In this document: in pieces, positions 41,429-62,757 of the stretch
Position numbering within the stretch: the first letter of the stretch is position 1
How the letters are laid out: each line of letters starts with the position of its first letter
Assembly (NCBI GenBank): GCA_017640445.1
Contig: JAEPQQ010000001.1
Location: forward strand, 56,769-120,768
Direction of reading: 5' to 3'
DNA length: 64,000 nt
From: Bacteroidia bacterium
Lineage (GTDB): Bacteria > Bacteroidota > Bacteroidia > NS11-12g > UBA9320
Position numbers and translations under genes: made by a program
Notes under the pieces: model-generated
The model's database searches: none
The model's input: the letters and a program-made list of their open reading frames with translations, nothing else
Told to the model about the DNA's origin: nothing

Positions 41429-43897
41429 TCAAAGTCGATATTTTAACAACAAACGGCCGCTGTAAACGTGTTTGCGTTCAACACCATAAAGGCCTTCAAT
41501 CATGCCTAACCCAAAACTTGTTTGAATGGACAACTTCTGCAGAGGGTGGAACGAAGCTGTTGTAACCCAGTTATACCTTAAATCATGAGAATCATAATAG
41601 TCGAAGAAGATGGAGGATGAAACGTTGACTTTCTTTTCTGATTGCTGGCCAACCTCAATTCGAACACCCCTATAGTTCAGCGTGTCAATTTGTGGTTTAG
41701 ACTGATTTCTGTAAGCGTTTACGGAAGCCCGTAACCCAGGGCTCTTCAGTGCCAGTAACAGGTTGTAGAATTCGTTCTCGACAGGTGCTTCTCCTTGATT
41801 GAAGTCAATTTGGCTTCTCGTGTAGTTGGAGACAACGGATACCCTTGTCTTTTTGACCTTTTTGACATAGATGATACCGGCTGTGGTAACACTCAACTGG
41901 TTGTTTACACGGAATACGGAGTCTGGATGGTTGTTACCTTGCTCATAGGGTGCGTGCTGAACAAACAGGTTAGGCCACTTTTTCAGATTCGTTCTAGCAG
42001 AGATGCCATACCCTTTCATTGTGTTGGTTGTTTGTTGAATGCTTGTGATGTTGTCGGCAAAATGCTTGTAGAAAACAGAAGTCTGTAGTCTGCGTTTTAA
42101 GAATTTTCGATCCAATTGAATCCGATGTTCATCGTAACCATTGCGCATGAATGGGTTGGATAGGTTTATAAAACCAGGGTAGATACGGTGATTGGTTATA
42201 GACATCTTGGATTGAGCATCAATTTGAACCTTGAATTCCAACTTTAAGGCCATTCGATTAAGACGTTGTACGATAACCCCCGGGTGTTTAGTTTCGGATG
42301 AGGGTTCTGGGAGCTTTCGGTTGTCGACATACGCCGAATGCGCCGTGGTAGCCCTGATGTTAAGGTGTTTGCCAAGTTTTCGTCTCACCTCAAGCGTTTG
42401 AACAAAGTTTCGTTTAGGCTCAGTGAGAGTCACAGGATCCCAGATGGATGTGTTAGAAATCGTTAGACTTCCGCGTGACGACATACGTTCATAATACACG
42501 CCCTGAACATTTCTGGTAAATTCTGGATTGGGTTGACCTAATCCAAAGGTGTTAATCCGGTTGTTGAATGTCCTGCCACCAACAAGTTTGAAGTGGTTTT
42601 TACCTTTGGTGAATCCGGCATTCAGACCTTTGACCGGTGTTCCGTTTAACGACAGCTTTGAAAAGAAAGGGTAGTTAATTCCAACCTCAAAGTAATCGAC
42701 ATTGCTCAGGATACCGGCTAACTTCTTACTACCTAGTTTCTGAGCCGCTCTCTGTTTGATAAAATCCGGATTTGCAAACTGTGATTGTAGGTATTCAATA
42801 CGACTTCCGTAGGCAGAGTCCAGATCATTGACCAATCTGTAAACCGAGTCAACCAGTTCATATTTTCTTTTGAGATCTTCATATTGTTCCTTTCGTTTTA
42901 GGTAGGTTTCATATTTGGTTGAGTCGAGTTTCGCTGCCCGTTCCGTGGTGATATGGTTGTAGGGGTTCAGGAGGGAGTCGGACGTTCTTTTTATCGCGTT
43001 TTCTATCAGGTTAATTTGTCGATCCTTACCCTTCTTAATCTGGTCCGCTTTTCCATTTGGATTCAACTCATCCTGAGCATTAGGTACATCCAGGTGCCGG
43101 TTTAGATTCTTTTTGGCTTGAATATCGATTTGATCCAGTTGGCTCTTTTTATGATCCAATTGCAGTTTTATTTGGTTTTTATAGCTTCCAAGTTCAGATT
43201 GCTTTTCTCGTGCTATGTTCTTTTTCTGATAGACTTTCTGGAGCTCATCTCTGGCTTTTTGTTGTAGATTACTCTTAAAGGTCTCGGTATCGAATCGAAC
43301 ACGAAAGGAGTTCGAATTATAAATGGTGTTGTCTTCCGTCGTTACAAAGAAGTCAACAGCAAATGGCAGATTCGCGACTTGAATAGTCGGATTGCCATAA
43401 AATCGGCTATAGGCCTTTTCACTTATGGTAAAGGGATCCTGGTAGTTGGTGACGAACGACTCGGAGACAATTTCTCCAGAGAGGGAGATCCTGGACGAAA
43501 CGATTTGTTTTGTTCTGTCCAGCGATAACCTGAAAAGTCCGTTAAGCGAGTCTCCATGGTTTTTTAGGGAAGATTTTTTAGGCAAGATTTCGTTCAGAGA
43601 AGCACGAAGAAGGGAGTCGCGAAAATCGTTAATCTGGTTTTTTGCAGAGTTTAAACCTGCGTTTGTTCGGTGCCGCAGGGAGTCCTTGTGTCTGTTTACG
43701 GCATACGCTATACTGTCACTCTTTTTAGAAAGAAGTTCATGGGACTTACCGTATTGGTCAATCAGTTGTTCTTTCTGAAGTTCGATATTTTTCAGGGTTT
43801 GTTCCTGGAGACTGTCTTTGTTTACAACCTTGGTATTGATTTGGGCAAACCCAGTAGAAAACAAAAACAGGCAAACCAGGACAATCGCCAGACGCAT
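41429..43897 (-). CDS. Predicted outer-membrane beta-barrel protein with a long N-terminal coiled-coil region. It is the last gene of the toxin operon.
   Basis: The signal MRLAIVLVCLFLFSTGFAQ begins at Met 38 of the listed ORF. About 400 aa of K/E/Q/L-rich heptad-like sequence follows. The C-terminal ~420 aa show an amphipathic beta-strand alternation ending ...RLLLKYRL. The gene lies 116 bp downstream of the RHS gene stop on the same strand. Confidence 0.6.
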   Translation of the reverse strand: MRLAIVLVCLFLFSTGFAQINTKVVNKDSLQEQTLKNIELQKEQLIDQYGKSHELLSKKSDSIAYAVNRHKDSLRHRTNAGLNSAKNQINDFRDSLLRASLNEILPKKSSLKNHGDSLNGLFRLSLDRTKQIVSSRISLSGEIVSESFVTNYQDPFTISEKAYSRFYGNPTIQVANLPFAVDFFVTTEDNTIYNSNSFRVRFDTETFKSNLQQKARDELQKVYQKKNIAREKQSELGSYKNQIKLQLDHKKSQLDQIDIQAKKNLNRHLDVPNAQDELNPNGKADQIKKGKDRQINLIENAIKRTSDSLLNPYNHITTERAAKLDSTKYETYLKRKEQYEDLKRKYELVDSVYRLVNDLDSAYGSRIEYLQSQFANPDFIKQRAAQKLGSKKLAGILSNVDYFEVGINYPFFSKLSLNGTPVKGLNAGFTKGKNHFKLVGGRTFNNRINTFGLGQPNPEFTRNVQGVYYERMSSRGSLTISNTSIWDPVTLTEPKRNFVQTLEVRRKLGKHLNIRATTAHSAYVDNRKLPEPSSETKHPGVIVQRLNRMALKLEFKVQIDAQSKMSITNHRIYPGFINLSNPFMRNGYDEHRIQLDRKFLKRRLQTSVFYKHFADNITSIQQTTNTMKGYGISARTNLKKWPNLFVQHAPYEQGNNHPDSVFRVNNQLSVTTAGIIYVKKVKKTRVSVVSNYTRSQIDFNQGEAPVENEFYNLLLALKSPGLRASVNAYRNQSKPQIDTLNYRGVRIEVGQQSEKKVNVSSSIFFDYYDSHDLRYNWVTTASFHPLQKLSIQTSFGLGMIEGLYGVERKHVYSGRLLLKYRL

Positions 43898-44013
43898 AAT
43901 GGGTACGGTGGTCTTATAAAGCCATTCGGAAAACCTTTTGGAATATCCTATTAGATAGGGGAGATGTTTCGGAGTAAAAGCCGAAACATCTCCCAATAAA
44001 TCAGTCATATGGC

Positions 44014-44772
44014 TTATTTCTTAGGGACTGGTATTGAGTTTATAACATTGGTGTGATATTGACTTGTGGTTTCGATTTTTTGCAACATTCTTGCTTTACC
44101 AGTTCCATCAGACTGAAGGTCGAAACCATAGGTAAGTGACAGGATAGGCACATAAGAATCTCCTACTTGTCTCACTAGAGATAACTCAGCGACCCAATAA
44201 ACAGGACCATCTTGGTGCTTTGGCCTTCCAGGCTGGTCACTAAATGATCGATAGCCAATCTCCAGGTTGTCACCGTATACTGGCACCTTGTTCTTACGGT
44301 CATAACCCGAATAGAAATGTGGAGGGTCATTTGGTACCGGTGGATCTGTGTACTCAAGCTCCCTTAGAACCGGAGTGCCTCGATTATAGTTCAACAACTT
44401 GTACTCGTTATGTGGATAGTTGGTTTTGATGGTTTGGACCCAATTAACATAACCTACGTCGTCTGCAAGCTTGGTGTCTAGAACTATCCCGGTGAAATAT
44501 CCATTAATCGGACTTTTGTGACCATAAAAATCCAGACCCCTAGAAAAGGGCTCAAAGTGTATCACATTTACTTGACCAAGCTCACCCAGCGAATAAGTGG
44601 GTTTGGGATCGTTTAGATTCAGATACTCTCCAATTGGAAGGTTCTTTGCTTCATACTCCTTGTTCCAAGCCATTAAATCCTCAGTTGGTATACCAGTCCA
44701 GATCGATATTTTCGAGAACCAGTCGTTTTCTTCTATTTTCCATTTCCATACTCCATCCAGTAAAACCGAGTC
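44014..44772 (-). other. C-terminal variable (toxin-like) domain of the RHS protein, downstream of the DPSGA core terminus. It includes a LysM-like segment.
   Basis: The sequence after IIDPSGA is DSVLLDGVWKWKIEENDWFSKISIWTGIPTEDLMAWNK...NLPIGEYLNL (LysM-like spacing) followed by ~190 aa with no recognised family. Confidence 0.6.
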
Positions 44773-47700
44773 TGCACCCGAAGGGTCGATAATCCAGATA
44801 GGATTATTAGCGTAACATGAGTAACCGCTCTGGTCATGTTTGACAACTGGGTCGACATTCCACCTTCGGCCTAACCTACTATCGTATTGCCAGAATTGAG
44901 CGGTTAAACTGTTCCCCGAACCATGAATCTCATCATCAGCCTCTTGTCCCTGGAAACCATATTTATAAGTAGACGTAGCATAGCTCCCAGCTTCAAATCC
45001 CCGTTCGTCCATCAGGGAGCCAAACGCATAGTAGTCCTGTGCCTTAATCACATAAGGTATGAAGTAATCAATTGTTCCGTTAGAGGTATAATCAACGCCT
45101 TGCTTTCGGTCTTGAATGGTGACCAGTACATTGCCTAAGTGGTTTGACAATTCATAGGTCTTTAAACCCCGTTCCGTGTAATGAACAACGGTGTCAACTA
45201 CAAATAGTACATTGATTGGATAGGCCGAATAATCTCGAGATGTAAGACGAGAGTCGTCAAGTGTTGCCGTGAATTCTCGTTCTACTAACACCGTGTCAAT
45301 GTGCTGAACACCAATACGCGAGGACCCATAAATGGTGAACTCGTTGATCTTGAGCTGGTCGGTATAGTGACTACCGTTGGATGGATATGCACGCGTATAC
45401 GTAGCCAATACCTTGCCCTCACCATCGCGTATGTAATACTCAATTTGCCAGTGACTTTCATCGAGCAACGTATTGTTGTTGGAAGCATCCTTGGGCTTTA
45501 CAACCTTGTACATTCGGTTGTTGAATACATCATACCCAAACTCGAGATCTGGTTGCGCGTCGTTCGCACCTCGTTTGATTTCCTTGATCTTGCCAGAAGC
45601 CGTCCAAACAATTTCACTAATTGCAGAACTTTCATCGCGTGTTAGATTCCCTAAAACGTCATAACCATAGGTGTTATCTGTGTTGATTTGGGATGGAGTG
45701 CTTGTAAACGATGTACCTGGATCATCTACGTCATTGGTATACCTTGATGTAAGCAGGGGTTGATCATTAACGTGATACAACTTGTTGCTGTGCATGCCTT
45801 CCCAATTCAGGGTTACACTTCCTCCCGGCGAGCTGACTGTAGCCGATTTGCCACGCTTGTCATAATGGTAGATCAGGCTATCCATCTCCACAGAAGGTGT
45901 TAGATGCCCGTTTCTGCGTAACCGCGTAATGTTCCCATTTCCGTCGTATTGGAAATCTTCATAATATAAAGCCTCGCCCGTAGCACTCGTGTTTAACCAG
46001 GCATCCTGGGCCGAATTGATATTTTGAAACACGCGGTGTTTGAATATTCTATTCAGTTGATCGTAACGATATACGTTCCCCATAACATCGGCCTTCAGGC
46101 TTCCGTTTATGTAGTCATTTTCCATGGGAATCGAAGTGGTCATCATAGCAATGTTGCCATTGTATAAAGCATCATAAGCTGAGGCAACATCACTACCCGT
46201 TTTGTCTGGTCCGTAAGCACCACCGTTAATTGGCGTATAATCTTCGTTGAAATAAGAAAGGTCATACGCAAAGGCATCTCTTGCCACCCAACGATTTGGA
46301 TTGGTTGGAATTTGCATGCCGTCCTGGCCAATATCCTCGGTAGAATTGAGTACGGCGCCATTTACGCCTTTGACCCACCCTTGGAGCGTATATGCATAAT
46401 CCATTCCCTGTACATTGAGTTCCCCCAATTCCTGTCGTGCCAGCGGTCCATGGAAATAGTATTCATACCGCGATTCGCTCTCCCACGAATAATCATCTCG
46501 CGACGTTTGCACCTCAACCAGTTGATTGTTTCGATCATATACTAAACGATGTACAAACTGATCCGCTTGATTCTTTTGGTAAATGGTTTTAAGAACATTC
46601 CCACTTAAGAGGTCGAAGGTGTAATCGATGCTGAACAGGTTTCTCTCTAATGGTGCAAGTGTTGGTAAGTCTTGAACATAACGACTCAGGTTCCCCATCG
46701 CATCGTACGAGTAAAACACACCATGGTCGTACGTTGCATCATTGTTGTCGTTAACCTGTTCATAAGTCGAATAGGAAATCCAGTTGCGTAGGTTTTGTTG
46801 ACCACCAAGGTCTGCGAATGCATCATAAATCGGTTGGGAAGCATTGGCTTCGTCAAAATAACTTCGTAGAACTTCTGATTTGTAACTTGGGTTACCAGAA
46901 ACATCAAGCATATTGGTTACGGATGAGTTGGTGGCTGCGAACTCTGAAGTCATTCCTCCGGAGGGTGGGTTCTGAGGGTCAACGATTCCCGATTCAACCG
47001 TTCTTCCTAATTCGTCGTACACTGTGTAAGCGAATTTATTGTCTACAGCCTGGTCTTCGTTTTGACTTAGGATGGGGCGGCCAAGTTCATCGTACCACAT
47101 ATTGCTTTCGCCACCATCCGGTGTTTCTTGAGATACAATTTTCCCAAGACTGTTGTATCTATATTGAGTAGCCAGGTCGTGATAAGTAAGAGGTCGTGTA
47201 GCAAGGTTACCGGAACGGTAAGCTGCCGTTTTCGCAATGCGATCATTTGCCAAGAGCAATCGATCTATGTTACTCAGGCTGGCGTTGTCTACATCAACTC
47301 CCGCAGGAGGCACAGTTTTTACCAACGAACCGCTTCGGTCGTAGTAGTATAACATATGGTGAAGTGTTCGGTCGTTGTAACGAACACGCATTGTTTCCTT
47401 GAGAGAGTCGCTGTTCATGCATACGTTGACATACATACTGTCGAATAACTCGATACGCCTTTTGAGATAGTCGTCATACCGTGTAAGGGCGTTGGTCATG
47501 GCAACTTCGATGTCCTCTTCAAAACAAGGCTCAGGATCTACGATTGGCCGAAAAAAGGGTTTGTTGCATAGACGAGCACAGTTGAGACATGGAACTTCAA
47601 CACCAATATCAATAGTCTGGAAACGTCCCGTTAAACCAATTGTGTCATAGCAGTAGTCTTCAGAGCCGATGGTTACATTAGGACAATTAGCTTTGCTGCC

Positions 47701-50700
47701 CCAATATTTTTTAGGCATGCGATAGACTGCAATGAGTTTAAACATGTCAGGTGGTCGACACCCATGTACCTCCAGTGGTTTTACGTCAAGAAACTCAACG
47801 ATTTCGCCAAAGTTCCACTTTTTAGCGGCTGAGGGAAAGGTAAGATTGAAGGCCATTTCGTATCCATTTTGATCTTCAATGGTCACTACCAGTTCTGGAA
47901 CTTTGACCTCCTTCAGAACGTATTCCAGGTGATTTGAGAATCCATTGTCGTACAAGGTTGGGTTGTTGTAGAAAGAGTTGATGTCAAACGCACCTATTCC
48001 GGTGAAATTCCAATCTGTCGCATACAGATAATTCGGTTGGTCTTTTCGGGTTATTTGATCCAAGAAGGCCCTGAAAGCATCAAGGTACTCCATATCTACC
48101 GTATAGCATTTTGGGCAGGGCTTGGGCTTTGGGTCGAGTGTAACACCCGACGAACATGGACCGGTAAACTGAATAAAAGACTCTAGCGATTTCTTGCTCT
48201 GCGTAGTTCCGTTGTAACATTTGTTGAATCTCGCGTTGAAGAAATCTTCCAAGAGTGCAAACCAGTCTAGCATGTCTTGCACCGCCTGGGTAATAGTTCC
48301 GTTATAGGGGTGATATTGATAGTAGAGTTCACCAAGGTCGCCGGCTAATTGGCGAAGATTAGGCTGCGCGTATCCCGGATCGTCTGGTCGAGGGTTATTA
48401 ACCAGAAAGTCCTTGAAGGCCTGACCAATTGTTTCGCATGGTAGTTTTTCAACACAGGGGTCTTTTTTATGACAGCCACGAAGCTTGTTTAGATAGAAAG
48501 ATAAGCTATAACCAGCATTTGGATTGCATTTCGAGAATTCCAAATTCAACAGGCGTTCTATTTCTTCAAGTAGTGCAAGCCTTGCATCATTGATGGTTCC
48601 AGATCCGGTTTTGGACGCATCCATTATATCATATATGTCACCCATTTGATCAAGTGGGGCCAGATACAAGACCCCTGGTAAATGAGAGCTTATGTTGCCG
48701 AGGTTCTGACCATTTACGATCAGGTCGATGTTATAGGCTTCTCGAACGGCCTTCATGAAGTGAAAAGTGAGTCGGTCACAGGGAATGTTATCAACGCAAG
48801 GTTCTTTTGGATTGCACAGCAAGCTTTTATTCAAAAGCCAGTCCATGTCCTCAGCGTATTCTTCTAAATTGCTGCCGCTTATGTTGTTCCAGTTGGACGT
48901 GCTTGTCCACCCGTTTACGGTATTGCCGCTATTGTCCTTACGTTCACCGGTTCCCCACATCTTTTCACAGGCTTCTAAAAGGGATTGTATGTTGTCAATA
49001 GCAAAGCCTTTCTCGCGAAGCGCAAATGCTTCAAGGGTAATGGGAGGGGTCTGGGGTGGAGTTCCGGCAAGGTAGGAATCATAATCTTCCCTAATTTTCT
49101 TTAATTCTTTACAACCGCAGGTGTCCAGGAAACCGGTTTCCGTTTCAAACTCAATCTCGGGGTCACAGGTGGATTCATCTAAGCGCGTCAGGTCGGCAGG
49201 TGGGTTAACGTCCAATTGTTGCTGAATGTGTAGATTAGATTCGGGTGGGAACTTCATTCCTGGCAGATAGTCGTCAGGTTCGCATGGTGTCGGGTCGTTG
49301 ACAGGGATTCCTTTCCATAACTTACAACAGATTTGCCGCATGTTGTTGAAATTCCAGCTTGAGGGCCAACTCGTATTAAATAGAGAATCGTACAAATCTT
49401 CAGCTGGCAGGCCTCCTGAATGGCCAGAATCAAGGAGGTGCCCGATCTTCATAATGCGTTCGCATTGGCACTTAATCGATTCGACGTCCTGGGATTGGCT
49501 GACCTCGGATGTTTGCTCGCCTGGAATCACAAACCTTTCGTTGGTGGTTGCCCACTCAGTAGTAACTTTCTTACGAGCAAAACCGGCCTTTATGAACGGA
49601 CTTAAACTAGGCACTTTAAGAACAGGAGTTTCAGCAGCATAACGTATTTTCTCTGGCTTGCCCCCGTTGAGGTAGATGTCATCATTTTTCAGGTCAAAGG
49701 GATATGATTCGTCAAAATACGAAACCAATAATTTTCGGGATAGAGTATTCCAGAGTTGTCCGACCGTCGAATCATAACCTGGGTCAATGCAATTTCGGGC
49801 AAAGACTTCATACTCATAATATGTGAGGTTGAATCCAAACGACCGATTCACCCAGGTGGTGAGCATGTCTTGATACAACGGGTCTCCCGCAGCGAGTTTA
49901 ATTGCGGCAGAATCGTAACGCTCGTAGAATTGGTAAACGGGATCGTTTAAGTCCTTACAAACAATACAGTTTTGACACTTCTCTGCTGGGAATACGTGTC
50001 TTTGACTGGCCTTTGCCATTGCGAGGTCATGAGGGTAAGAACATCCACAAGAGTCTAGTATTGAATGAACTACCAGGTCAGGGCAGGCGTGTGGAGAACT
50101 CCATTTTATGGTATCACAAATACAATCATTTGCATCAGGGTCGTCGGTTGCTAAGTAGTCGTGTCCATAAACACCTGGAAATTGAATGAGCAGGTCATCA
50201 CAAATTCCTTCTTCAAACCAGTCATTCCCCAGATGCTTTTTAAATACATCATGTAGGTTGCCGAATGGGTAGGTAGTGGTATTTGTCGAGTTTTTTAGGG
50301 AGCGGGTAATAGAGCCATATGGGTTGTCAATATCACAGCCACTCATGCATAGATTCTGTAAATCCGCCTTGAAAGCATTGAAGTCGCCTTCGGTGAGGTT
50401 CGAAATCTTTGAGCAATCGCTCAACCATTCTATCCACATGTTCACGTTGTCTTCACAATTGCGTTCACAAGAACTCGTGATTTGATCGTTAATGAGATTT
50501 TCATAATCCTCGGCATTACATAAATTCATTATGCTTCCCCAACCTTGTTCAATATCATCAAGTGAAGAAATATCTTGAGCACCAGGCCATCGCGGTACGC
50601 CTAAAAGGCTCTGAGGAATTTCGAGGTCGCAGATGGAGGTTTGGTCACATGAATTGGTATAGTAGTCTTTCAGCCATGCACGTTTTTGGGATAGGTACAT

Positions 50701-53700
50701 TCCGCGAAGGATTGGCCAGAAAACCTCCTCCATGCAGGTGTCTTGCTCGGTCATATTGGTGGTTAGTCCGTTGTCCAAACGATACTGCTCATAAACTTCC
50801 CAAATGGTATTGGTGTGTGTCTGACAATCACCATTTGCATCAGGCAATAGATATTCAAAGGCTGTAAGACTCGTTTGGAAATCCGTTCCATGGGATGCAT
50901 AATAAGGCAGGTTTAGGATTGGATCACGTTCAACGCTGGCGGATATCTCGTAGGTCGTATAGTCAATTGTTTGGCTGTTTATGGTTCCAAGTGTGCCAAG
51001 TCCCAATCCCAGAGGATTGTAGTATCCCTTTTTCTGGGCCTCTCGGGGATCTTCGGTAGCTACGAGCTTTGCATCGTATTCGTAGGTGGTTTCAATCGCC
51101 TGGCATTTTGGATAGTAACAATACTCGGGGTGAATGTAGATCAGAGACTCTGCCCACGAACTTTTCCAGAATTTGACAAAATCAAGAACGGATTTGAGCT
51201 CATGAGGTCGCACAAATTTTTGACCGTCTATGACAACATGAGTTGCACCAGAAACAATATCGGGGTAGTTGTTGAATACCGGAATTAATGACTCGGTTCC
51301 ATCTGGGTCGTAATAGAGGTTGGCCGACGTGTTGTGGTTGAAAGGCACTCTCCAGTTGCGATCTGCGCCGCTGCAGGTACGCCATTGGTCGGATAGAATG
51401 GATTTCTGATTATAACCAGCGTCGCCAATCGTTTTGTCAACGTTTCCATATTCGTCCAAGGTGAAATACTTCATGTATTGACCACCAAGTGTGACATCGG
51501 CCAACATGTTTTGGTAGAGTATATCGCAAGGGGACTTTTCTTCACAAATCTCGTTGCACACTTCAATTAAATCCGAAAGCTCTTCTTTCACCGCGATGTA
51601 ATCTGTATGAGAGTTTGTGTCAATGCTGTTTTGCAAACACCAGTTTCGGATACTATCTCTGGTGGAATTCAACTCACCAATCTCATAATCACAATGTTCA
51701 CAGCTTATTTCACATTCAATAGCCATTTGACTTAGTTCCTCCGAAAGGAATTCCGTAAAGGTTTTAACGCAACCCGACTGTTTTAGGTAGTATTCCCGGT
51801 TCTGTTCGAGTCCATTTCGAGTCAGTCGAAGCGTTTTGACCAATGTATATTCACCTAGGCCAAGTTCAAGTGCAATGGGAGCGGGTTGTGCCTTAAAACG
51901 TATTGGTTTCTGACAATCGGCAGAATCGTCAATCGTACCCACCGTAGCTGTAATTGGGCCGCTAGGTATTTGTTCGTTTCCCCATTGGTCGATTAAGCTG
52001 ATGGTCATTTCATATTCACACGAGTAACAGAAGTTGGTGTCGCAAGCTGCCGACATCTGCAGGGGCTGGAATTCGTAATTGAATTTCCAACTATCTTTCT
52101 GAGTGACAAGAAATGTGTGGTTAATTACTTTTTCTTTTTGGTTTGAAACCGTGTTGTTCCAAAAGACATCGTATCCATCCACACCGGCTATATGACCAAT
52201 AGGTTCCAAACTTGGGGTATTGTCGTCATCACCCGCTAAAGCAGTTGCAATGGTTCGACCAAACAGATCTATATACGTTAGTGAAACCTGTCCATTGACG
52301 TCTTGCGTCATAATCTTTTTGTAGTTGGAATAAGGCCCCACTTCGGCCGCGAAAAGCACGTCTAGTTCTTCCTGCGTAGGAAGACCCTCCCATACTACAG
52401 TTTGCTTACCTTCACTTAACGTGGAATTGTGGTCGTAAGCTGTAAGTTGGTGAGTCTTACCAACAGAACCTGAACGGCTAAGCCGAACTTCAGGATCGTT
52501 TGTGAATTCTTGCTGTGAAAATGCATAACCATCGGCATCTGGTAGAAAGCTGTGTCGTCTTTTTACGTTCTCGGAGTACGAACTTGCTTGCAGATAGGTT
52601 TGAAACTGATCGGAGTAGTAATAATTTGAGCCAGACAAATCACTCATCTTATTCACCAGAATCTCATGAGAAACAGTGCTGCCTAAGTTGTAGTTTAGAT
52701 CAAAGTCAGTATAGCTGTAGTTCTGTCCGCTTGGATTTTGATTCAGTTTTTCGCGGAAATCATAACCTCGCTGATCGAAAACGGGTGATGGCATCACTGA
52801 AACCGCGGGGCGTCCGAGGTGATCGTAGATACTAGAGGCAACTACCGGGAGATCATTTTCGTGGTCCATGGATAGCTGACTACGCGTTCTAAGAAGACCG
52901 TCGGACCATTCAAGGAGGATGTCATATTTAGTTTCCTCTGCGTAGGTCGTAGACCTGTTCCAGTTCCTCGAAACATCGTAGTTCTGAACTTTTAGAGAAG
53001 TTTTTCCCGATGTCTGTCCAAGGCTGACTTGAGATTGGTCCGGTAAGGACCATAAGGTGGCAATTTTTCGACTTGATTGAGTTAGTTTTTCGCTTAGAGC
53101 CCGGACTCGATAAACCAAATACCCTTCTGGAAGAAAGATTGGGATGTCTAAACTCGTCCCGTCTGTAACGCGAATACGTGTGGCACTATGACGAAAATCA
53201 ATGTATATCGCAGACAATGGGGGGAGGTTTGGGTTTCGGTTTTCGGGAGACTGGATGAAGGCAAACTCAACTTCATATGATTCTGCTCCCGGTTTGCTTG
53301 GCCAGGTTAGTCTAATTTCCTGATCCTTTGCATTAACATTTGGCTTATCAGACGAAATGGACATCAAATTATGATCTAATGCATTTTTGGTCATCGCCTC
53401 AATTCGATTGATTTCGATTCGGTTTTCGAGTTGTATTACAGGAAGTTGCGCGTTGGGGTAGGTCAAACCAGAGCCTGTTACCGCGACATTGTTTATGGTA
53501 ACCTTGGACCAAATAACATCTTCTAACGTAATTACCACTCGGTCAACTTCCTTGGCAGTCTGACCTGGGTCATACTTCAATTGTATAGTTTTTAGTATGG
53601 GTGGTTGAGTCACAAACACATTGCCTATCAATTTGTCCGTCTCTATGGTTAGATCAATGTCGAACGTAATGGCAGAGGCAATTAGGTTCAAATTGGACCG

Positions 53701-54009
53701 GTCAATGTTGAGTATGATGCGGTTGTCCACTTTTCGATTGTAAAAACTTGTGGTCCATGCCGGGTTATTATAAATTGAACCTGTTCGGGGAGGAACGTCA
53801 TGTTGATTGTCCACAACCTGAGCGGAGGCGGGAAGCGATGTCACTGTATTAACCCCGGAAGTAAAGGGATATTCCTTTGCCTTGGCGTTCAATCCCGAAA
53901 TCAAGATCATGAACAACATCAGCGCGAGTGTAACCAGATTCGAACGGTGTCTGCCTACCAGTGATGCGTCGACTATTGTCTGTTTATTGGTTTGTCTGTA
54001 AATATTCAT
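44014..54009 (-). CDS. Giant (3331 aa) RHS/YD-repeat protein with an N-terminal signal/anchor, a Cys-rich ~2200-aa N-terminal region, an RHS shell, and a C-terminal polymorphic-toxin-like domain
   Basis: YD repeats from about residue 2220 (YYYDRSGSL, YRYNSLGKI, WYDELGRPI, YTVYDELGRTV ...). The RHS core terminus is QYDSRLGRRWNVDPV...YSCYANNPIWIIDPSGA. A 252-aa C-terminal extension follows. Confidence 0.9.
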   Translation of the reverse strand: MNIYRQTNKQTIVDASLVGRHRSNLVTLALMLFMILISGLNAKAKEYPFTSGVNTVTSLPASAQVVDNQHDVPPRTGSIYNNPAWTTSFYNRKVDNRIILNIDRSNLNLIASAITFDIDLTIETDKLIGNVFVTQPPILKTIQLKYDPGQTAKEVDRVVITLEDVIWSKVTINNVAVTGSGLTYPNAQLPVIQLENRIEINRIEAMTKNALDHNLMSISSDKPNVNAKDQEIRLTWPSKPGAESYEVEFAFIQSPENRNPNLPPLSAIYIDFRHSATRIRVTDGTSLDIPIFLPEGYLVYRVRALSEKLTQSSRKIATLWSLPDQSQVSLGQTSGKTSLKVQNYDVSRNWNRSTTYAEETKYDILLEWSDGLLRTRSQLSMDHENDLPVVASSIYDHLGRPAVSVMPSPVFDQRGYDFREKLNQNPSGQNYSYTDFDLNYNLGSTVSHEILVNKMSDLSGSNYYYSDQFQTYLQASSYSENVKRRHSFLPDADGYAFSQQEFTNDPEVRLSRSGSVGKTHQLTAYDHNSTLSEGKQTVVWEGLPTQEELDVLFAAEVGPYSNYKKIMTQDVNGQVSLTYIDLFGRTIATALAGDDDNTPSLEPIGHIAGVDGYDVFWNNTVSNQKEKVINHTFLVTQKDSWKFNYEFQPLQMSAACDTNFCYSCEYEMTISLIDQWGNEQIPSGPITATVGTIDDSADCQKPIRFKAQPAPIALELGLGEYTLVKTLRLTRNGLEQNREYYLKQSGCVKTFTEFLSEELSQMAIECEISCEHCDYEIGELNSTRDSIRNWCLQNSIDTNSHTDYIAVKEELSDLIEVCNEICEEKSPCDILYQNMLADVTLGGQYMKYFTLDEYGNVDKTIGDAGYNQKSILSDQWRTCSGADRNWRVPFNHNTSANLYYDPDGTESLIPVFNNYPDIVSGATHVVIDGQKFVRPHELKSVLDFVKFWKSSWAESLIYIHPEYCYYPKCQAIETTYEYDAKLVATEDPREAQKKGYYNPLGLGLGTLGTINSQTIDYTTYEISASVERDPILNLPYYASHGTDFQTSLTAFEYLLPDANGDCQTHTNTIWEVYEQYRLDNGLTTNMTEQDTCMEEVFWPILRGMYLSQKRAWLKDYYTNSCDQTSICDLEIPQSLLGVPRWPGAQDISSLDDIEQGWGSIMNLCNAEDYENLINDQITSSCERNCEDNVNMWIEWLSDCSKISNLTEGDFNAFKADLQNLCMSGCDIDNPYGSITRSLKNSTNTTTYPFGNLHDVFKKHLGNDWFEEGICDDLLIQFPGVYGHDYLATDDPDANDCICDTIKWSSPHACPDLVVHSILDSCGCSYPHDLAMAKASQRHVFPAEKCQNCIVCKDLNDPVYQFYERYDSAAIKLAAGDPLYQDMLTTWVNRSFGFNLTYYEYEVFARNCIDPGYDSTVGQLWNTLSRKLLVSYFDESYPFDLKNDDIYLNGGKPEKIRYAAETPVLKVPSLSPFIKAGFARKKVTTEWATTNERFVIPGEQTSEVSQSQDVESIKCQCERIMKIGHLLDSGHSGGLPAEDLYDSLFNTSWPSSWNFNNMRQICCKLWKGIPVNDPTPCEPDDYLPGMKFPPESNLHIQQQLDVNPPADLTRLDESTCDPEIEFETETGFLDTCGCKELKKIREDYDSYLAGTPPQTPPITLEAFALREKGFAIDNIQSLLEACEKMWGTGERKDNSGNTVNGWTSTSNWNNISGSNLEEYAEDMDWLLNKSLLCNPKEPCVDNIPCDRLTFHFMKAVREAYNIDLIVNGQNLGNISSHLPGVLYLAPLDQMGDIYDIMDASKTGSGTINDARLALLEEIERLLNLEFSKCNPNAGYSLSFYLNKLRGCHKKDPCVEKLPCETIGQAFKDFLVNNPRPDDPGYAQPNLRQLAGDLGELYYQYHPYNGTITQAVQDMLDWFALLEDFFNARFNKCYNGTTQSKKSLESFIQFTGPCSSGVTLDPKPKPCPKCYTVDMEYLDAFRAFLDQITRKDQPNYLYATDWNFTGIGAFDINSFYNNPTLYDNGFSNHLEYVLKEVKVPELVVTIEDQNGYEMAFNLTFPSAAKKWNFGEIVEFLDVKPLEVHGCRPPDMFKLIAVYRMPKKYWGSKANCPNVTIGSEDYCYDTIGLTGRFQTIDIGVEVPCLNCARLCNKPFFRPIVDPEPCFEEDIEVAMTNALTRYDDYLKRRIELFDSMYVNVCMNSDSLKETMRVRYNDRTLHHMLYYYDRSGSLVKTVPPAGVDVDNASLSNIDRLLLANDRIAKTAAYRSGNLATRPLTYHDLATQYRYNSLGKIVSQETPDGGESNMWYDELGRPILSQNEDQAVDNKFAYTVYDELGRTVESGIVDPQNPPSGGMTSEFAATNSSVTNMLDVSGNPSYKSEVLRSYFDEANASQPIYDAFADLGGQQNLRNWISYSTYEQVNDNNDATYDHGVFYSYDAMGNLSRYVQDLPTLAPLERNLFSIDYTFDLLSGNVLKTIYQKNQADQFVHRLVYDRNNQLVEVQTSRDDYSWESESRYEYYFHGPLARQELGELNVQGMDYAYTLQGWVKGVNGAVLNSTEDIGQDGMQIPTNPNRWVARDAFAYDLSYFNEDYTPINGGAYGPDKTGSDVASAYDALYNGNIAMMTTSIPMENDYINGSLKADVMGNVYRYDQLNRIFKHRVFQNINSAQDAWLNTSATGEALYYEDFQYDGNGNITRLRRNGHLTPSVEMDSLIYHYDKRGKSATVSSPGGSVTLNWEGMHSNKLYHVNDQPLLTSRYTNDVDDPGTSFTSTPSQINTDNTYGYDVLGNLTRDESSAISEIVWTASGKIKEIKRGANDAQPDLEFGYDVFNNRMYKVVKPKDASNNNTLLDESHWQIEYYIRDGEGKVLATYTRAYPSNGSHYTDQLKINEFTIYGSSRIGVQHIDTVLVEREFTATLDDSRLTSRDYSAYPINVLFVVDTVVHYTERGLKTYELSNHLGNVLVTIQDRKQGVDYTSNGTIDYFIPYVIKAQDYYAFGSLMDERGFEAGSYATSTYKYGFQGQEADDEIHGSGNSLTAQFWQYDSRLGRRWNVDPVVKHDQSGYSCYANNPIWIIDPSGADSVLLDGVWKWKIEENDWFSKISIWTGIPTEDLMAWNKEYEAKNLPIGEYLNLNDPKPTYSLGELGQVNVIHFEPFSRGLDFYGHKSPINGYFTGIVLDTKLADDVGYVNWVQTIKTNYPHNEYKLLNYNRGTPVLRELEYTDPPVPNDPPHFYSGYDRKNKVPVYGDNLEIGYRSFSDQPGRPKHQDGPVYWVAELSLVRQVGDSYVPILSLTYGFDLQSDGTGKARMLQKIETTSQYHTNVINSIPVPKK
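44773..47360 (-). other. RHS/YD-repeat shell region (~860 aa) of the giant protein
   Basis: Many Yx(Y)DxxGRL/NL-type repeats were read from the translation. The boundaries are approximate. Confidence 0.7.
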
Positions 54010-54027: not shown

Positions 54028-54708
54028 TTAAAGTTTGTATAGCTCAATTTGGTCTAATTCAGGTTCGTCCTGAAGCTCCAGCGTCTTGAGATTAATTACG
54101 TTAGCTGGATCTATGAGTACCGGTATTAGTCGTTCGTCTGTGTTGCGCTGAACCATCCGCATTACGGTGCGATGGATTTCCGACTGCCCAAGTGCATTTT
54201 TGCGCACCTGGGTCAAAACCGTCTCTTCCAATTCATCGGTGCTTCTCCGAAACTTGATCGTAAGGGTCACATCATCCAGGTAGTAGGTGTTGATTCGAAA
54301 AGGCCCTTCATTTTTCGACCTTATTATTTGGATGGAATCAGCGTTACTAAACCCAGCCAATTGATGAATCACGCTGTCCGGGATTTGATTTTTGCGTTTG
54401 ATCCGAATTTTGGCTCGGCGAACCGGTAATGGGGTTCTTCTTACCAGAGTTGCGATCTTCGACTCCGCATACACCGTTAGTACGTTGCTCGCCCATGTGT
54501 ACTGCCTGTAGGCATCCCCAAATTCCGTGTATGTTATGCCTTTACAGCTACCTTCTTCCATTTGCAGTGAGTCCGTTAAATCGAGGTTTACGTAGTTGTA
54601 TTGCCGCCAGGTTTTAAGGTAGCAAGCAGGTTTGTTGGGTTTTTCTTGTCCAAAACCTGGGATGTATAAGAATACTAAGAACAGAGATATAGAAACTAGT
54701 TTTTTCAT
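54028..54708 (-). CDS. Small secreted protein (226 aa) sandwiched between the two giant genes
   Basis: Signal MKKLVSISLFLVFLYIPGFGQ. It lies 5 bp after the SpvB-like gene stop and 18 bp before the RHS gene start. Confidence 0.6.
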   Translation of the reverse strand: MKKLVSISLFLVFLYIPGFGQEKPNKPACYLKTWRQYNYVNLDLTDSLQMEEGSCKGITYTEFGDAYRQYTWASNVLTVYAESKIATLVRRTPLPVRRAKIRIKRKNQIPDSVIHQLAGFSNADSIQIIRSKNEGPFRINTYYLDDVTLTIKFRRSTDELEETVLTQVRKNALGQSEIHRTVMRMVQRNTDERLIPVLIDPANVINLKTLELQDEPELDQIELYKL

Positions 54709-54713
54709 GGTTA

Positions 54714-57700
54714 TTAATCTTTAAAGCTTTGGTAATTTTCACTGAGTGTCATGATGCCACGGTCTGTTTCCACCTTATTGCGTTGGAGACGTCCGGCTTC
54801 ATTGTATTCGTAGAATGTGGCAAAATTATTTGGTCCGAGACTGGCCATAAGTCGTTTACGGTCTTTGTCGTACACGTAAGCATTCATAATGGCATCTTCA
54901 GGGAAAATCATGATATCATCCACAAAACAGGGAAGGGCCGGCTCGCCTGTCCGTCTGTTTACCATAAACCGCATTCGCTCGATTTCTTCTCCTGCCAGGA
55001 GCGTAAAGCGATAGGTCATTTTTCTCCATTCATTGACGAAAACATCCGGTGTTTCAGTGGTTAACCCAACCGGTGTAGAAGTGCCCCCTACATCTTTGGT
55101 CAGGTGGAACTCGAATTGGCCTTCAAATCCTTCTTTTACCCAAAGTGAAACAATGTATTCCTGGTCTGTATCTGGTTTGAGGTAGAAGTTGGTTGCGAAG
55201 TGGCTTTTGGTAAGCACATTTGAAGGCGTACCAGGAGAAGGAGCGCCTTCGTCAGACGCATCGTTGTCTAGCTCAACGTCAGTCCAGCCATCACCTAACA
55301 TAAGGGCCTTATTGCCTGTGTGGGCCTGTTGTTCGCTTATGCGATTTACACCACCGATTAGGGCCTCACCTACACGCCAGTGTCTAAATGATTCACAGAA
55401 CTCTTCCTGCCAGTCAGGTGTAACAACCGTATTAAGGCCTAAGTAGTCCTGACAATTCAGTTCCACATAAGCGTCACCAGAATAGTCCTCAAAACTCTCA
55501 AAAAGTACTTCGTTGTAGGCGGCGTTGGATACAGCAGCGACTGGTAACGAACGTTGGTAATCATATAGGATAGAATTGCGTATACCATTGAGGGCACTAA
55601 CGGTTTCCAGATCGTTGCCAAGAAAGTCAGTTTTAGTTACGGAGTCTTTCCAGGTCCAGGGGTTTGTCAAACTTTGAGTTGAGTTCTTTTGCCAGGTAGA
55701 TGTAGATGAATTGTAGGTCCAGTAGGGTTTGAAATCTGATAAGTAACCCGATTCACGAATGTTTGTCGAATTGGGGTCGGTAGATACATCTTGCACCTGA
55801 ACCCGGGTAGAATGAGCGTTCCGCTTTTCATAATACACCACTTCGGATGCGGGTCGCCAATTACCCTTTAACCCGTATACATATGGGTTAATAATATCTC
55901 CCGGATGGAAAGCCGACCACATGGAACACAACGCACAGTTTGGAAGTGGATGCATGGGATTCTCATCGTCTCTTCCACAATCACAGGGCGCAGGTTTGCC
56001 ATAAAAAATCCCGTTACCCGCACCAGAATCCAAACTGTCATAGTGAAAGCCAAAGTCTTGAGTGTAAGAACTCGGAGTGTTGCGATAGCCATAACCATAA
56101 GCTGTTAGGTCACCACTAACCTGCGGAACTGCTGGTAGTGTACACATAGGCTCCGCACAGTATCTGAACTTATAAAGCATTTTGCGTTCGTCATGATAGT
56201 CGATTGTTTTCGCCGAAATAACTTTATCCCAATTTGCGAACTCATGCCACTTCCCGGTTGAGTGGTCTAGGGGGTTGTCCTTGAGTACAATGGTTTCCGC
56301 ACCATATGTCAACAGGTTTTTATGTCCTGAACGGAATACGCGAAGCCGATTAGTAGGTGTGGTGTTATTCCCAAGTTGATCAATTAGTTCAACGGTTCCG
56401 TTATGGGATGATAGCACCCAGTATTTTGTGGTGTTAGCGAAATCGTCGGGCACCAGAATGTCTCCTGGCAGTAAACTACCTGAAGGATCAGTTAGTGAAC
56501 TTCCATTCCACTGAAGCTCCACCGTTAAGCCAAGGTTCTCGTATGCTCCGGCAAGCTGACCGTTCATCCAGTAAGCTGGTTTGTTCAGGGTGTACACGTT
56601 GTCGTTAAATTCGTCCTTGGTCTTTGTCACCATCACTTTACCGGTTACTGCATCCCATGCCATGTTTTTGATAAAGGTGTGATTGCCCTTGTCCATGGTG
56701 TGAATCGAATCCAATATGCCATTTCGGAATACTTGTTTGGTTACAATCATGATCCGGGAATCGTTGGAGTGATATGCATAACTCCCAAATACAGAAGGTA
56801 TTATTGGGATTGGCATAGGGTTAGCAATGTCTACATTGGGTGTAATGGCACCATCCTGATTAATTTCAGTAGTTCGGAACGCAAAAACCGTGGGCACCAT
56901 TTGAACCCCCATTTCTACATCTTCAAAACTTCCATCTTTGCGTAAAACGGTAACGGTGTTGACCAATGCATTTTTAGAGTCCATTTTGTAGTGAAAAGTC
57001 TTCGATGTAATTGCATTTTTACCATTGGGCTTAAACGTTTTTACGGATTTGGGTTTGCCATGCATATCGTTTTGCTCAATCATAAAACCCTGTGAAGCGG
57101 CCGCAAACCCCAACTTGGCTTGTACGTCAAACCCAAACGTAAACTTCTTGCTATCACTTTCGGCTGGTTCTTTTGCAACTCCATCTGTTGAAGGTTCTTT
57201 GGACTTAAAGGTGTCTTTGAGTTGTGGAGAAGTGAAGTTCCGGATGCGCTTGTCGATAGTGGTCATTGAAGATTTGGTAGGAAAGTCATAGGCCGTATAG
57301 AATTCGTATTCGGTTCGGCCGGTTTGGTGCCTCACAATGTCTTGGTGTGGGGCTACATGTTGAACCGTAACCTTACTGTAGCCTACCTGGGCAGCTGGAT
57401 AAAACTCTTCTCCAATAGGTCCTAAATCGTAACCAATCGAAACAGAACCCAATGGCCCACTTCTTTTTCGCCGATATACGTCTTTTAGTGCCTCGTACTG
57501 AATCGGACGAACAAGTGGATTTTCCTCTCCTCCAATAAATGGTTCGTATATGGCAACACCTGAGGTAGATGTACTATCACTTCCTTTGTTGTAGGTGTAC
57601 AGCGTGGTGTAAGAAGCTTCCGATTCGGTACTATCCGACATGTGGTGCCAGCCGTCATAAGTGGTGACTGTTTTTACGCGATGGCCACCACCATATTTTT

Positions 57701-60700
57701 TTCTTTGTGGATGAAGAAGTCGAATAAACGATCGATCAATATCAATACGTTGAGCATGACTACGAGCCTGATAGTAATTAACCGAGCCCATAATCGACTT
57801 AATATACTCAGGTATTATGCCTACCGCCTGATTCACTGCATCATCGATTTTTTCTGATGTATTACTACGCTTGGTGTATCCTTTTGGATTCATGACATGA
57901 GGCACATTGCTCAACGCATATTGCAATGCCATTTTAGTTACAGGATTGACCTTAGTCGGCTGCAACCGTCCAAGTTCATATGGGGCCACCTTAATATAGG
58001 CTTTGTTTGTACTGGCAATATCACCGTGTTCTACTACAGAGAAGAAGCCGGAAACCTGCTCATTAGCCAGGCGTTCTCCGGTGCGCGCCAGGTTGACGTT
58101 GAAACTGAAAAAAACAAGACTGTCGTTAGTGATGTAATCGACGGAGGTGGTTCCGGGATCTTTTTCAAAGGTGATGTACAGGTTTGGGTCCTGTATGCCG
58201 TCGTATAATTCGTTGTCATCATAATCCGAAAGCGATCCTCTGATCCCACTAATGGGTCTCATTACCATGGCGGGTTCGTTTTGTACATACGCATAGTCAT
58301 CGGATTCGTAGGTCCAAGTAATTTTCCCGCCGGAGGGTAAGGTTACATCTGACATCATCCAGGCCGAGGCCCAGGTGTCAATATTGTTTGGGTCTTGGTG
58401 GGTATAAGGAAAGTGAGCCAAGGTCGTTTGACGGTCGTCGGAAACTCCACTTTTTTTGTACAGATCGAGTGGATGGTATGTACCCCACCGGTCACCACTG
58501 AGGTACGCATAATCTGGGTTAGCCGTATTGTACTCAAATAGGTAGGGGTCGGATGTAGCCATACCAAACGAATGGTCAATAAACTGAAGCGTATGCAGGG
58601 TAAGTTTACCACCGGAAAACTTAACATTTGAGCCATATCCGGCCACAAGATCCTTAAGAGGATGCTCGTTACAAGAGCTAGAAACGCTAGGTGCCTGGTA
58701 AGTTTTTACACCTTGGCAGAGGTCATAGGAGTACCCCAGTTTAATCTCTCGGGTTGGGCTGGCAGAAAGTCCGTCCTTTTCAAATGACGCACGGTCGAAA
58801 ATTTTGATGCCAACCAGGCATTTTTGGCGATTCCCAGAGGTATTGATGCCGCCATTGCGCCCGACATTGCCATAACCATCTGCGCGATCTTCAAGTTCGA
58901 AGACAACAATCTCGTTTTTGGTTTCAATGCTGTGCATATACCACTGTTCCCGTTGCCCGTATGAAAAACTTGCTTGATCATCGAGTTCGTCTGATTCGTA
59001 ACCTCTGGCCCAGTTTGCGTCTGTAAAAGGAGTTCTCCAGTTGAATAGGGAGTGGTACATGTCTGAGCTAGACGAGTTGTAATCCGGCATGCCATAGTTG
59101 AATTTGACATAATTCCCCAAGTCATCTTTTGTTGGGCCGTCGCCAGTTAAGTCTGAATAATCTTGAGATAAGATAGTGGTCAATAGGAAAGTACTGGCGT
59201 ATGAAGGCGTTTTAACCTCTTCAAAGAAGTTGTTGATACCCTTTTTGTTTGACTCACTGTCGTCTGCATTGCCCGATTTGGTATAGCTTGTGGTCTTGCT
59301 TAGGTAATCATCAAGGTCCTGGCCTGAGCCACTGCCGTCTACGGCAAACCGCACATTGTATTCGTTAACCTGATACACCGGCAAGCCAAAGTTGTATAAC
59401 ATACCGTCTGGTTGGAGTACGTTGATTTCGGAGATGTGGTGCCCCTTACGATAGTCAGAAGCGCGGTCTATTTCGTCATAATTAAGTGATGTTGACCCGG
59501 AACTGGTTGTGGAAACCCTATATGAGGTTTGACAAGCAGCTCCGGTTGATTCAAATTGATAGCTTCGTAGTTTGGCAGTGATGCCTTGTTTACTCGCCTC
59601 ATCGGCGGTAAGATAGGAAATGGCTTGCAGCCGAGCGCCACGCGACGATTTAGCCGCCTGTGCACTAAGTGTACCCATATCGTTTCCCTGAACGCCAACC
59701 ATGTCGTTGGTTATACGCCATGCCGATAATTTATCACGGGTATTGCTTTTGAGTCCAAACTTGATAGCCTGTTTGCCGCCAAGTTGGTTGTCATAGGCCA
59801 TATCTGTTTCCACAAACTCGAAGTCGTTACGCAGGGCAAAGGGCTCGTATGTACTATTGACACTCCTGTCTTTGAATTTTAAGTAGGGAGCTGCCTCGTT
59901 TTTGCCTTCCCAACGCTCTGTTTTTTTGATGACGTGTCGGAGCCCGAATTTTCCGGCAATTTCCCAGTTGGTGCCACCGCCTATTTCAACTTGTATTTTC
60001 GGATTGGTAAAGGTGGTAACCTTTCCGAGAGAAGGGGTAAGGATACCTATACTGTTTTGCTTAATCTTGAAACTGCCGCCAACCCCGTTTGCAGATACAT
60101 TAAATACGTCATAGGTTGCAACAGTTGGTGGTAGTTTTTGCGTTGTTTTGTCAATGACCATTGAGGCAACTTGATGGTCAAGGAGTGCTCCTTCAGCCTC
60201 GGTGCCTTCCTGAAAATAGAGGCTGCCATAGGCCTTGGAAGCCTTGAATTTTTTTGAGTACTTCTCAGTGGATACAACAACTTTTCCGGAGATGGCCCGA
60301 TCATCGGCAAATATTTTATCCCCTGATATGGCGAGACCGAAGACCTTGACCGATGCATGAATGTCAGGGTTAAACTGCGGGAGGTAAGAAGATGAAAGGA
60401 AGTTGGCCCCGAAATTGGCCACATCTGTTGCTCCATAGCGAAATCTGGGTTTCTTTAACGCCATGGACTTTAGCCCTTTTTCCGTACTGAATTTGATTGA
60501 AGGACTCGAAAGCAAGATGTGGTATCGTTTTTCTTTTCCTCCTAACCATCTATTGTCCAAAAAACCTATGCGCGGCACTACCTCATAGGAGTTGCCGTCA
60601 AACGCACTGTAAGACGTCTTAAAGTCAAGAATTGGTATTTTTTGGGTAATTGAGGAGTCTCGCAGAACTATGGCAATAATGGAGTCGGAAAGAGTTGAAT

Positions 60701-62494: not shown

Positions 62495-62757
62495 GCTTAT
62501 TTTTTTAGAAATGAAAAAACAGTAAAGTCTATTATGGTAAGTTGGAAACATGTAACCAAATCACCCCATTTATTTGATAAGATCGAAGGGCCGTTTTGAA
62601 TCTGGTAGAGTTGACTTTGATTCTGGTGTAACAGCAAATTGTGACTAGTTAGAGGCAGCTGTATTATTGTATTTCGCATTATTTATATTTGTGTAAGGGT
62701 GCTTCTGGTAAATCCAGAATGCCCGACTTACACAAACCCGCCCTTAAAAACCTGAAA

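Follow-up and report, generated by a model that had tools for sequence, protein, structure and literature searches.

RHS and other polymorphic toxins are a main source of new antibacterial activities, and the RHS type, with a swappable C-terminal payload (CT) and sometimes peptidoglycan-binding accessory domains, is well known. Its described members, among them the Rhs proteins of Enterobacteria, the Rhs effectors of type VI secretion systems (T6SS), WapA and TcB/TcC, carry YD repeats and a core that ends in DPxG. Here we describe an RHS protein of 3331 amino acids (aa) encoded in a 64,000-nucleotide stretch from a Bacteroidia bacterium (contig JAEPQQ010000001.1, positions 56,769 to 120,768), which we refer to as the window. 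The 252-aa CT of this protein is predicted to join a diverged LysM domain to a toxin domain that belongs to a conserved, unannotated family. The protein has the YD repeats and the DPxG core of the described toxins, its C-terminal domain likewise differs among homologues, and putative orphan cassettes occur in its relatives. Unlike the described toxins, it has no PAAR, VgrG or nearby T6SS genes, it opens with a signal peptide and a Cys-rich N-terminal region of ~2000 aa, it stands beside unannotated partners of 406, 2192 and 226 aa, and it has a flat G+C (GC) content over the CT and no downstream immunity gene. In a T6SS Rhs effector one would expect T6SS genes in the vicinity, or an N-terminus with PAAR or with contacts to VgrG, whereas the N-terminus here is a hydrophobic, signal-like segment.

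The TANFOR-class toxins of Bacteroidetes are also very large proteins with Sec signals and swappable C-terminal toxins; they have downstream immunity genes and cross the outer membrane by an unknown export route (PMC7073777). In contrast to that class the scaffold in the window is RHS, and NCBIfam gave no match to the TANFOR domain in the RHS protein. An N-terminal LysM followed by an extracytoplasmic domain recalls the LysM wall effectors and hydrolases (LysM with NlpC/P60, lysozyme-like or M23/NlpD domains, and YkuD of B. subtilis), as does the export of the candidate immunity proteins, where these are present (PMC10673891). The partner domain in the window is none of these, however, and appears to be a beta-sandwich with neither a Pfam or NCBIfam match nor a convincing neighbour in the PDB. 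Colicin M-type bacteriocins, which cleave lipid II, are similar in logic only, through periplasmic action, an Asp/Asp/Arg set of residues and several unrelated immunity families. LysM itself has been listed among the adhesion domains of polymorphic toxins (Zhang et al. 2012, PMC3482391).

The gene and the parts of its payload are laid out in the window as follows.
44014..54009, minus strand: RHS/YD-repeat polymorphic toxin gene, 3331 aa (open reading frame and RHS profile matches).
44014..54009, minus strand, order of parts: N-terminal signal/anchor segment, Cys-rich N-terminal region of ~2000 aa, RHS shell, core, CT.
44776..45033, minus strand: RHS repeat-associated core, residues 2993-3078, YDSRLGRRWNVDP ... 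NNPIWIIDPSG (TIGR03696 and direct reading).
44773..44787, minus strand: motif DPSGA at the boundary, where autoproteolytic release is expected and the conservation of RHS relatives ends.
44014..44772, minus strand: CT, 252 aa and stop codon.
44617..44751, minus strand: diverged LysM domain, CT residues 8-52, VWKWKIEENDWFSKISIWTGIPTEDLMAWNKEYEAKNLPIGEYLN.
44038..44577, minus strand: toxin domain, CT residues 66-245 (~180 aa), predicted beta-sandwich.
44344..44346, minus strand: codon of Asp143 (CT numbering; D3222 of the protein), invariant in 38 sequences.
44224..44238, minus strand: D179-Q-P181-G-R183 motif, with D and R invariant and P near-invariant (alignment and codon reading).

The protein is identical to MBO6515022.1, annotated as a hypothetical protein of a Bacteroidia bacterium metagenome-assembled genome (MAG), on a scaffold of 133 kb. 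PF05593 (RHS_repeat) has four matching stretches within residues 2080-3079, at E 1.2e-6 and with 29.2 bits where the cut-off is 22 bits, and residues 2993-3078 match TIGR03696 (Rhs_assc_core; E 2.2e-7, covering positions 1-75 of the 76 in the profile) with a score of 31.3 bits, which is 1.2 bits below the curated cut-off. Judged from these profiles, we take the RHS identity of the protein to be real. The core terminus reads ...NNPIWIIDPSGA (also given as ...YDSRLGRRWNVDPVVKHDQSGYSCYANNPIWIIDPSGA), and HDQSGYSCYANNPIWIIDPSGA, residues 3058-3079 of the protein, is followed by exactly 252 residues, just as an earlier reading of the window from its sequence, the original prediction, had described for positions 44014-44772.

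The same prediction took these residues for a variable payload, and comparison with relatives agrees. A scan that took one genome per species and used the C-terminal 828 residues of the protein as query recovered seven related loci with best-segment identities of 33-60%. The alignments of all seven end at query residues 575-593, with the boundary at residue 576. Where we read the boundaries directly (L001, L003, L004 and L007), conservation runs to NPxxxxDPxG[A/L] and is followed by 226-280 unrelated residues. The closest full-length relative, a 3379-aa protein from a UBA6063-like Bacteroidetes genome, is 47% identical over 3129 residues and carries a different CT, and the CT family of the window is also borne by quite different RHS bodies. 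The GC profile is flat at 0.42-0.45 with no drop over the CT, and composition therefore gives no sign of recent acquisition. Read from these alignments, the CT is the variable payload of an RHS polymorphic toxin.

We searched 1.84 billion proteins (cluster representatives) with the CT using phmmer. At E<=1e-3 this returned 40 proteins, comprising 37 toxin-domain relatives, the window protein and two LysM-repeat proteins. A metagenome scan for the toxin domain used a 6-sequence core alignment, and with 8 further metagenomic loci the family, which is rare, numbers about 45. In most members the domain is either the C-terminal end of a Bacteroidota RHS protein (1245-2875 aa long) or part of a short or orphan cassette that starts just before DPxG; a few stand alone, and some of these carry a canonical LysM. 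In an alignment of the window CT with the 37 homologous C-terminal regions (A1, 38 sequences), D143, D179 and R183 are invariant and Q113, P181 and G216 nearly so. The family signature is WxQTxxTN ... D ... PFY ... FxDxPxRP ... YWxAELSLV ... TYGF ... PSxxH, and the corresponding motifs in the window are WVQTIKTN ... D143 ... PHFY ... FSDQPGRP ... VYWVAELSLV ... LTYGF ... QYH. The window protein also carries all 19 of the positions that are invariant in its closest subfamily. No family-invariant residue is missing from the toxin domain, so it is probably active. Asp143, Asp179 and Arg183, together with Gln113, resemble an active site or a ligand-binding site. A single-sequence AlphaFold2 (AF2) run on the CT gave no usable model (predicted local distance difference test, pLDDT, 32). 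With the A1 alignment the model reached a pLDDT of 81.6 and a predicted template modelling score (pTM) of 0.74, and shows the toxin domain as a beta-sandwich with two short helices.

The original prediction had found that the CT beyond its first ~45 residues matched nothing recognisable. This holds for domain databases, as neither Pfam nor NCBIfam matches residues ~66-245 in the window protein or in any of the 37 homologues, but the region is not an orphan, as the conserved family shows. Pfam and NCBIfam searches of the CT, the whole protein and its four neighbours returned the RHS core and a weak LysM and nothing else. Sequence searches of the PDB, run with the CT, with A1 and with A2, turned up nothing beyond LysM and noise and no sequence relative of the toxin domain, and Foldseek of the CT model against PDB and BFVD matched only LysM, with no convincing PDB neighbour of the beta-sandwich. 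The toxin-domain alignment contains no Cys/His or metal-binding His motif. A word-indexed homology search gave 0 matches for the CT query and 3 for the family profile, tblastn of the CT against plasmids gave no match, and none of the family motifs matched in the supplement that accompanies the PT1-PT9 toxin screen.

Two assignments of the toxin domain were considered and are not supported. For a colicin M-like lipid II phosphatase there was no Colicin_M Pfam match (CT at E<=10, the 38 homologues at E<=0.1) and the DxYDx5HR motif is absent. For a beta-barrel pore-former of the leukocidin/CytK type, the expected combination of a cap, rim and stem layout and a significant structural match was not found. 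Among the stand-alone members, P0028 (L020 3001-3702) and P0038 have AsmA, LptE and Dus genes in the locus and a Sel1-repeat gene upstream, with neither an RHS gene nor a small downstream open reading frame (ORF); this locus may lie outside Bacteroidota (unchecked).

Towards the N-terminus of the CT, the original prediction had noticed LysM-like spacing over the first ~45 residues, and the evidence indicates that this segment is a true, though diverged, LysM domain (CT residues 8-52). Searched alone, the 58-aa N-terminal segment of the CT matches PF01476 at E 0.014, with 15.7 bits falling below the gathering cut-off of 20.9 bits. In the same columns 13 of the 38 members of A1 pass Pfam LysM (best E 2e-12), and the A1 profile matches solved LysM domains, with LytE from B. 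subtilis at E 1e-6. The two LysM-repeat proteins found by phmmer are pure LysM-repeat proteins and match through CT residues 13-57 (E 7e-5 and 1e-3). The AF2 model places residues 8-52 in a strand-helix-helix-strand arrangement, the beta-alpha-alpha-beta fold of LysM, at a pLDDT of ~90. In the loop from strand 1 to helix 1 the window has NDW instead of the usual GDT. Two LysM types are joined to the one toxin domain, a VWKW type and a canonical type, the latter in P0008, P0027 and P0035. Since the LysM is positioned after the release motif, it would be part of the payload and not of the scaffold, and it most likely tethers the payload to a glycan containing N-acetylglucosamine (peptidoglycan).

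Genomic context was read for 15 loci of the toxin-domain family. At 14 of these (P0011, P0041, P0008, P0016, P0025, P0015, P0020, P0010, L024, L026, L027, L028, L029/L030 and L031) a same-strand ORF of 122-173 aa directly follows the toxin, with a spacing of -7 to +10 bp in nearly all. Every one of the 13 downstream ORFs that we read starts with a signal peptide, made up of MKK, a hydrophobic stretch and then AQ, SQ or a lipobox-like Cys. These ORFs fall into at least three sequence families, which track the toxin subtype. The one that we call immC consists of 141-168 aa signal-peptide proteins with the motifs I.H[VI]G..DKP and (Y/F)G.F(E/S)V. It was found at 7 loci, as six members and the ORF after P0015 (immC hidden Markov model (HMM), E 4e-11), and is a candidate new immunity family.
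immC-family ORFs, always directly after the toxin domain: L024 from 2949, L026 from 3360, L027 from 1360, L028 from 2849, L030 from 802, L031 from 3354, and L017 5562-6029.

The ORFs after P0011 and P0041 are an OmpA-like pair with 48% identity to each other. PF00691 matches the P0041 partner (L015 1932-2327) at E 1.9e-5 and the L008 4900-5268 protein only at E 0.11. A peptidoglycan-associating OmpA-like fold would be unusual for an immunity protein, and these two candidates are small and exported. The downstream ORFs of P0008 and P0016 are related to each other (E 1e-24).

Because they combine adjacency, co-variation with the toxin and export, the downstream ORFs bear the hallmarks of immunity against toxins that act outside the cytoplasm. 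Colicin M, for which multiple immunity families have been noted (PMC7073777), gives a precedent for several unrelated immunity families serving one toxin family. The exported ORFs and the recurrent fusion to LysM, in two types, support an antibacterial, envelope-directed toxin, which adds to the plausibility of the envelope target that the original prediction had drawn from a peptidoglycan-binding module. We consider it likely that the target of the toxin domain is extracytoplasmic and that its action is antibacterial. Among possible substrates, peptidoglycan or a lipid-linked wall precursor is the likeliest; that the domain acts by such chemistry is a tentative suggestion, which we doubt somewhat more than we believe.

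Against this background the window locus stands out by what follows the RHS gene.
43898..44013, minus strand: 116-bp gap, the expected site of an immunity gene, which holds a perfect 14-bp stem-loop.
41429..43897, minus strand: 822-aa exported protein, start taken as M38, with no domain matches and a coiled-coil-like N-terminal half.

The RHS stop codon (44014-44016) is followed by the 116-bp gap and then by the gene for the 822-aa protein. The next same-strand ORF (41429..44008, 859 aa), the one that gene finders call, begins 5 bp past the stop, and its first 37 codons pass through the stem-loop. A signal peptide equivalent to M38-Q56 opens all seven homologues of this ORF, and as the extension crosses the hairpin, M38 is the likely start of an 822-aa protein. 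No other minus-strand ORF of >=20 aa lies in the gap. The arms of the stem-loop (43959-43972 and 43981-43994) enclose an 8-nt loop and start 19 nt past the RHS stop; as RNA the centroid structure has an energy of -24.6 kcal/mol (z -4.1). The hairpin has no T-run, a consensus terminator scan does not call it, and its arm is not repeated as an element within the window. It probably ends or stabilises the RHS transcript.

An immunity gene was also sought elsewhere in the window. tblastn with seven downstream ORFs gave no credible match. A search with three immunity HMMs (hmmsearch at maximum sensitivity) against the 724 stop-to-stop ORFs of the window likewise found nothing credible, the best match being a 50-aa out-of-frame ORF at E 0.011 over 39 aligned residues; the immunity families of this toxin are very diverse and a fourth family would go unrecognised by this search. 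Ten small unannotated plus-strand ORFs beside the locus were scanned for Imm-type domains, with none found. As far as these searches reach, the usual toxin-immunity pairing is broken at this locus, the gene being atypically without an adjacent partner, as the original prediction had stated when it found only the 37-codon extension in the gap. Protection, if it is needed, must come from a gene beyond the window or from intrinsic resistance.

Upstream of the RHS gene lie three further genes on the same strand.
54028..54708, minus strand: 226-aa exported protein, a conserved operon component.
54714-61292, minus strand: 2192-aa upstream operon gene.
61331-62551, minus strand: 406-aa upstream operon gene.

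The gene order in the UBA6063-like genome (382, 2232, 222, RHS 3379 and 159 aa) parallels that of the window (406, 2192, 226, RHS). Three of the four operon pairs were compared and all are homologous, the 2192/2232-aa pair being matched by position only. The 406-aa and 382-aa proteins share 48% identity, and the 226-aa protein shares 30% (E 3e-29) with its 222-aa counterpart, which stands in the matching place ahead of the UBA6063-like RHS gene; that RHS gene has an unrelated CT and its own lipoprotein-like downstream ORF of 159 aa. The original prediction had named the secreted 226-aa protein as an immunity candidate. We reject this role for it, as its homologue is kept beside an orthologous RHS protein with a different CT, and for the 406-aa protein on the same grounds; by their conservation both are fixed parts of the operon. 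Pfam and NCBIfam found no domains in the 406-, 2192- and 226-aa partners, which may form an export or assembly apparatus for this class of RHS protein. The P0020 locus has a layout like that of the window operon, with a very large protein, one of 148 aa and then RHS.

The 822-aa protein has no domain matches, and its homologues are 33-55% identical to it. In the UBA6063-like genome, where contigs L021 and L001 overlap over 2082 bp at 100% identity, an 842-aa homologue (48% identity; L021 10001-12529) is encoded upstream of the 382-2232-222-RHS-159 operon, in divergent orientation to it, and the gene after the 159-aa ORF is unrelated to the 822-aa protein. A third genome (L023 10001-12655) has a 55%-identical homologue with no RHS gene within 10 kb. 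From these contexts the 822-aa gene is, we infer, loosely tied to the operon type and not CT-specific. As its homologue lies at the opposite end of the operon in the UBA6063-like genome, the 3' flank in the window is rearranged, and an immunity gene could have been lost or split off in the process.

Rows of small ORF pairs follow the main gene in L007 8298-16115 (Chitinophaga sp. S165) and across the whole of L008 and L010. We read them as orphan toxin-immunity cassettes, an assignment that is unchecked. The window has no such rows.

Taken as a whole, the locus is best explained, in our moderately confident view, as encoding an envelope-acting payload, made of a LysM and a beta-sandwich, of an RHS toxin whose immunity pairing is broken. 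The Sec-exported RHS protein would enclose the 252-aa payload in its shell. By analogy with other RHS and Tc proteins, the payload would be cut off after DPSGA within the shell and held there until delivery. In the periplasm of the target the LysM would bind the glycan strands of peptidoglycan, and the Asp-Asp-Arg site of the beta-sandwich might then, at a guess, attack the wall or a lipid-linked precursor. Bacterial killing by the toxin domain most likely proceeds from the periplasmic side, and the envelope location is the well-supported part of this proposal. Several points weigh against it. The immunity searches cover 64 kb of a 133-kb contig from an incomplete MAG, and P0028 also has no downstream ORF, making it 1 of the 15 family loci without one. 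The signal peptides of the downstream ORFs were judged by eye, and the immunity role of these ORFs is read solely from position, signal peptides and co-variation. The LysM in the window scores under the Pfam threshold and has NDW for GDT, and its glycan binding is a prediction from sequence. In some T6SS effectors LysM serves to load the effector onto VgrG and not to bind the wall (PMC10673891).

It is possible that this is an ordinary toxin-immunity system with its immunity gene elsewhere, in an orphan immunity cluster or with a second CT copy, and that the missing neighbour reflects mere rearrangement. We give this nearly as much credence as doubt, and it is compatible with the account above. 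The original prediction had also allowed for immunity encoded elsewhere, which stands for the DNA beyond the window and found no support within its 64 kb, where the three recognisable families of downstream ORFs have no homologue. The rearranged 3' flank relative to the orthologous operon and the span of the search, 64 kb of the 133-kb contig, speak for a gene elsewhere, and the rows of small ORFs in Chitinophaga sp. S165, on the orphan-cassette reading, would mean that such genes may be mobile. At the other extreme, the locus might encode a new class of envelope toxin, either an enzyme or an Asp-Asp-Arg binder, targeted by LysM to peptidoglycan and deployed without any immunity protein. We regard this as improbable; were it so, either the wall of the producer would be intrinsically insensitive or the RHS route could not reach kin, and the toxin would be a natural interbacterial weapon that comes without immunity. 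Immunity would equally be needless if the payload were aimed at fungi or other eukaryotes, as the original prediction had suggested for eukaryotes and as the binding of chitin by LysM would allow, or at bacteria with a different wall chemistry. This we think very improbable: the small adjacent ORF at 14 of the 15 family loci, with a signal peptide in all 13 read, is a signature of self-protection against an antibacterial toxin with an extracytoplasmic action, and the domain in the window keeps all invariant residues and clusters with the members that have such an ORF.

How the two domains of the envelope-acting payload work also allows for other answers. The beta-sandwich may not be an enzyme: it might form pores, or it might bind and sequester peptidoglycan, lipid II or an essential protein of the envelope, with the LysM aiding docking. 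We hold this to be unlikely. The LysM, for its part, could be a protein-protein adaptor or serve in packaging, either to load the payload onto a secretion device or to fit it inside the RHS shell. The role of LysM in the VgrG-effector interaction at T6SS loci (PMC10673891) and the loss of the GDT signature would fit such a function. However, neither the RHS protein nor any of its four neighbours gave a Pfam or NCBIfam match to PAAR, VgrG or another T6SS domain, the position of the LysM after the release site means that it travels with the toxin, and independent LysM types on the same toxin domain are easier to reconcile with a common substrate than with a common secretion partner. An adaptor role is improbable in our view.

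Residues 1-2000 of the RHS protein (window 48000-54009) are Cys-rich and 47% identical to the UBA6063-like orthologue. A domain search of this region gave nothing but a faint match to DUF6443 (residues 353-434, E 0.0045), for which we found no paper that mentions it. On the plus strand, a run of about 25 small same-strand genes (19655-41389) converges on the gene for the 822-aa protein. It includes SRPBCC/Polyketide_cyc2, GNAT, glyoxalase and DUF1648 proteins, a cyclic nucleotide monophosphate (cNMP)-binding Crp-like regulator and a leucine-rich repeat (LRR) protein, and many of its genes have no matches.

What is new here is the toxin-domain family, absent from Pfam and NCBIfam and with no convincing structural neighbour, the exported partner families of that domain, the LysM inside the released payload, and a toxin that is apparently intact, to judge from its conserved residues, and has no adjacent partner. 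We regard this as a moderate finding and a sound lead to a new envelope-targeting activity, although very many other polymorphic-toxin tips are likewise uncharacterised. Should the immunity gene merely lie at another site, there would be nothing out of the ordinary about the locus within its very large class. Should the domain attack peptidoglycan or its precursors by new chemistry, it would represent a new mechanism against a cell-wall target, and the locus, being immunity-less, would offer a test case of the way in which producers spare their siblings.

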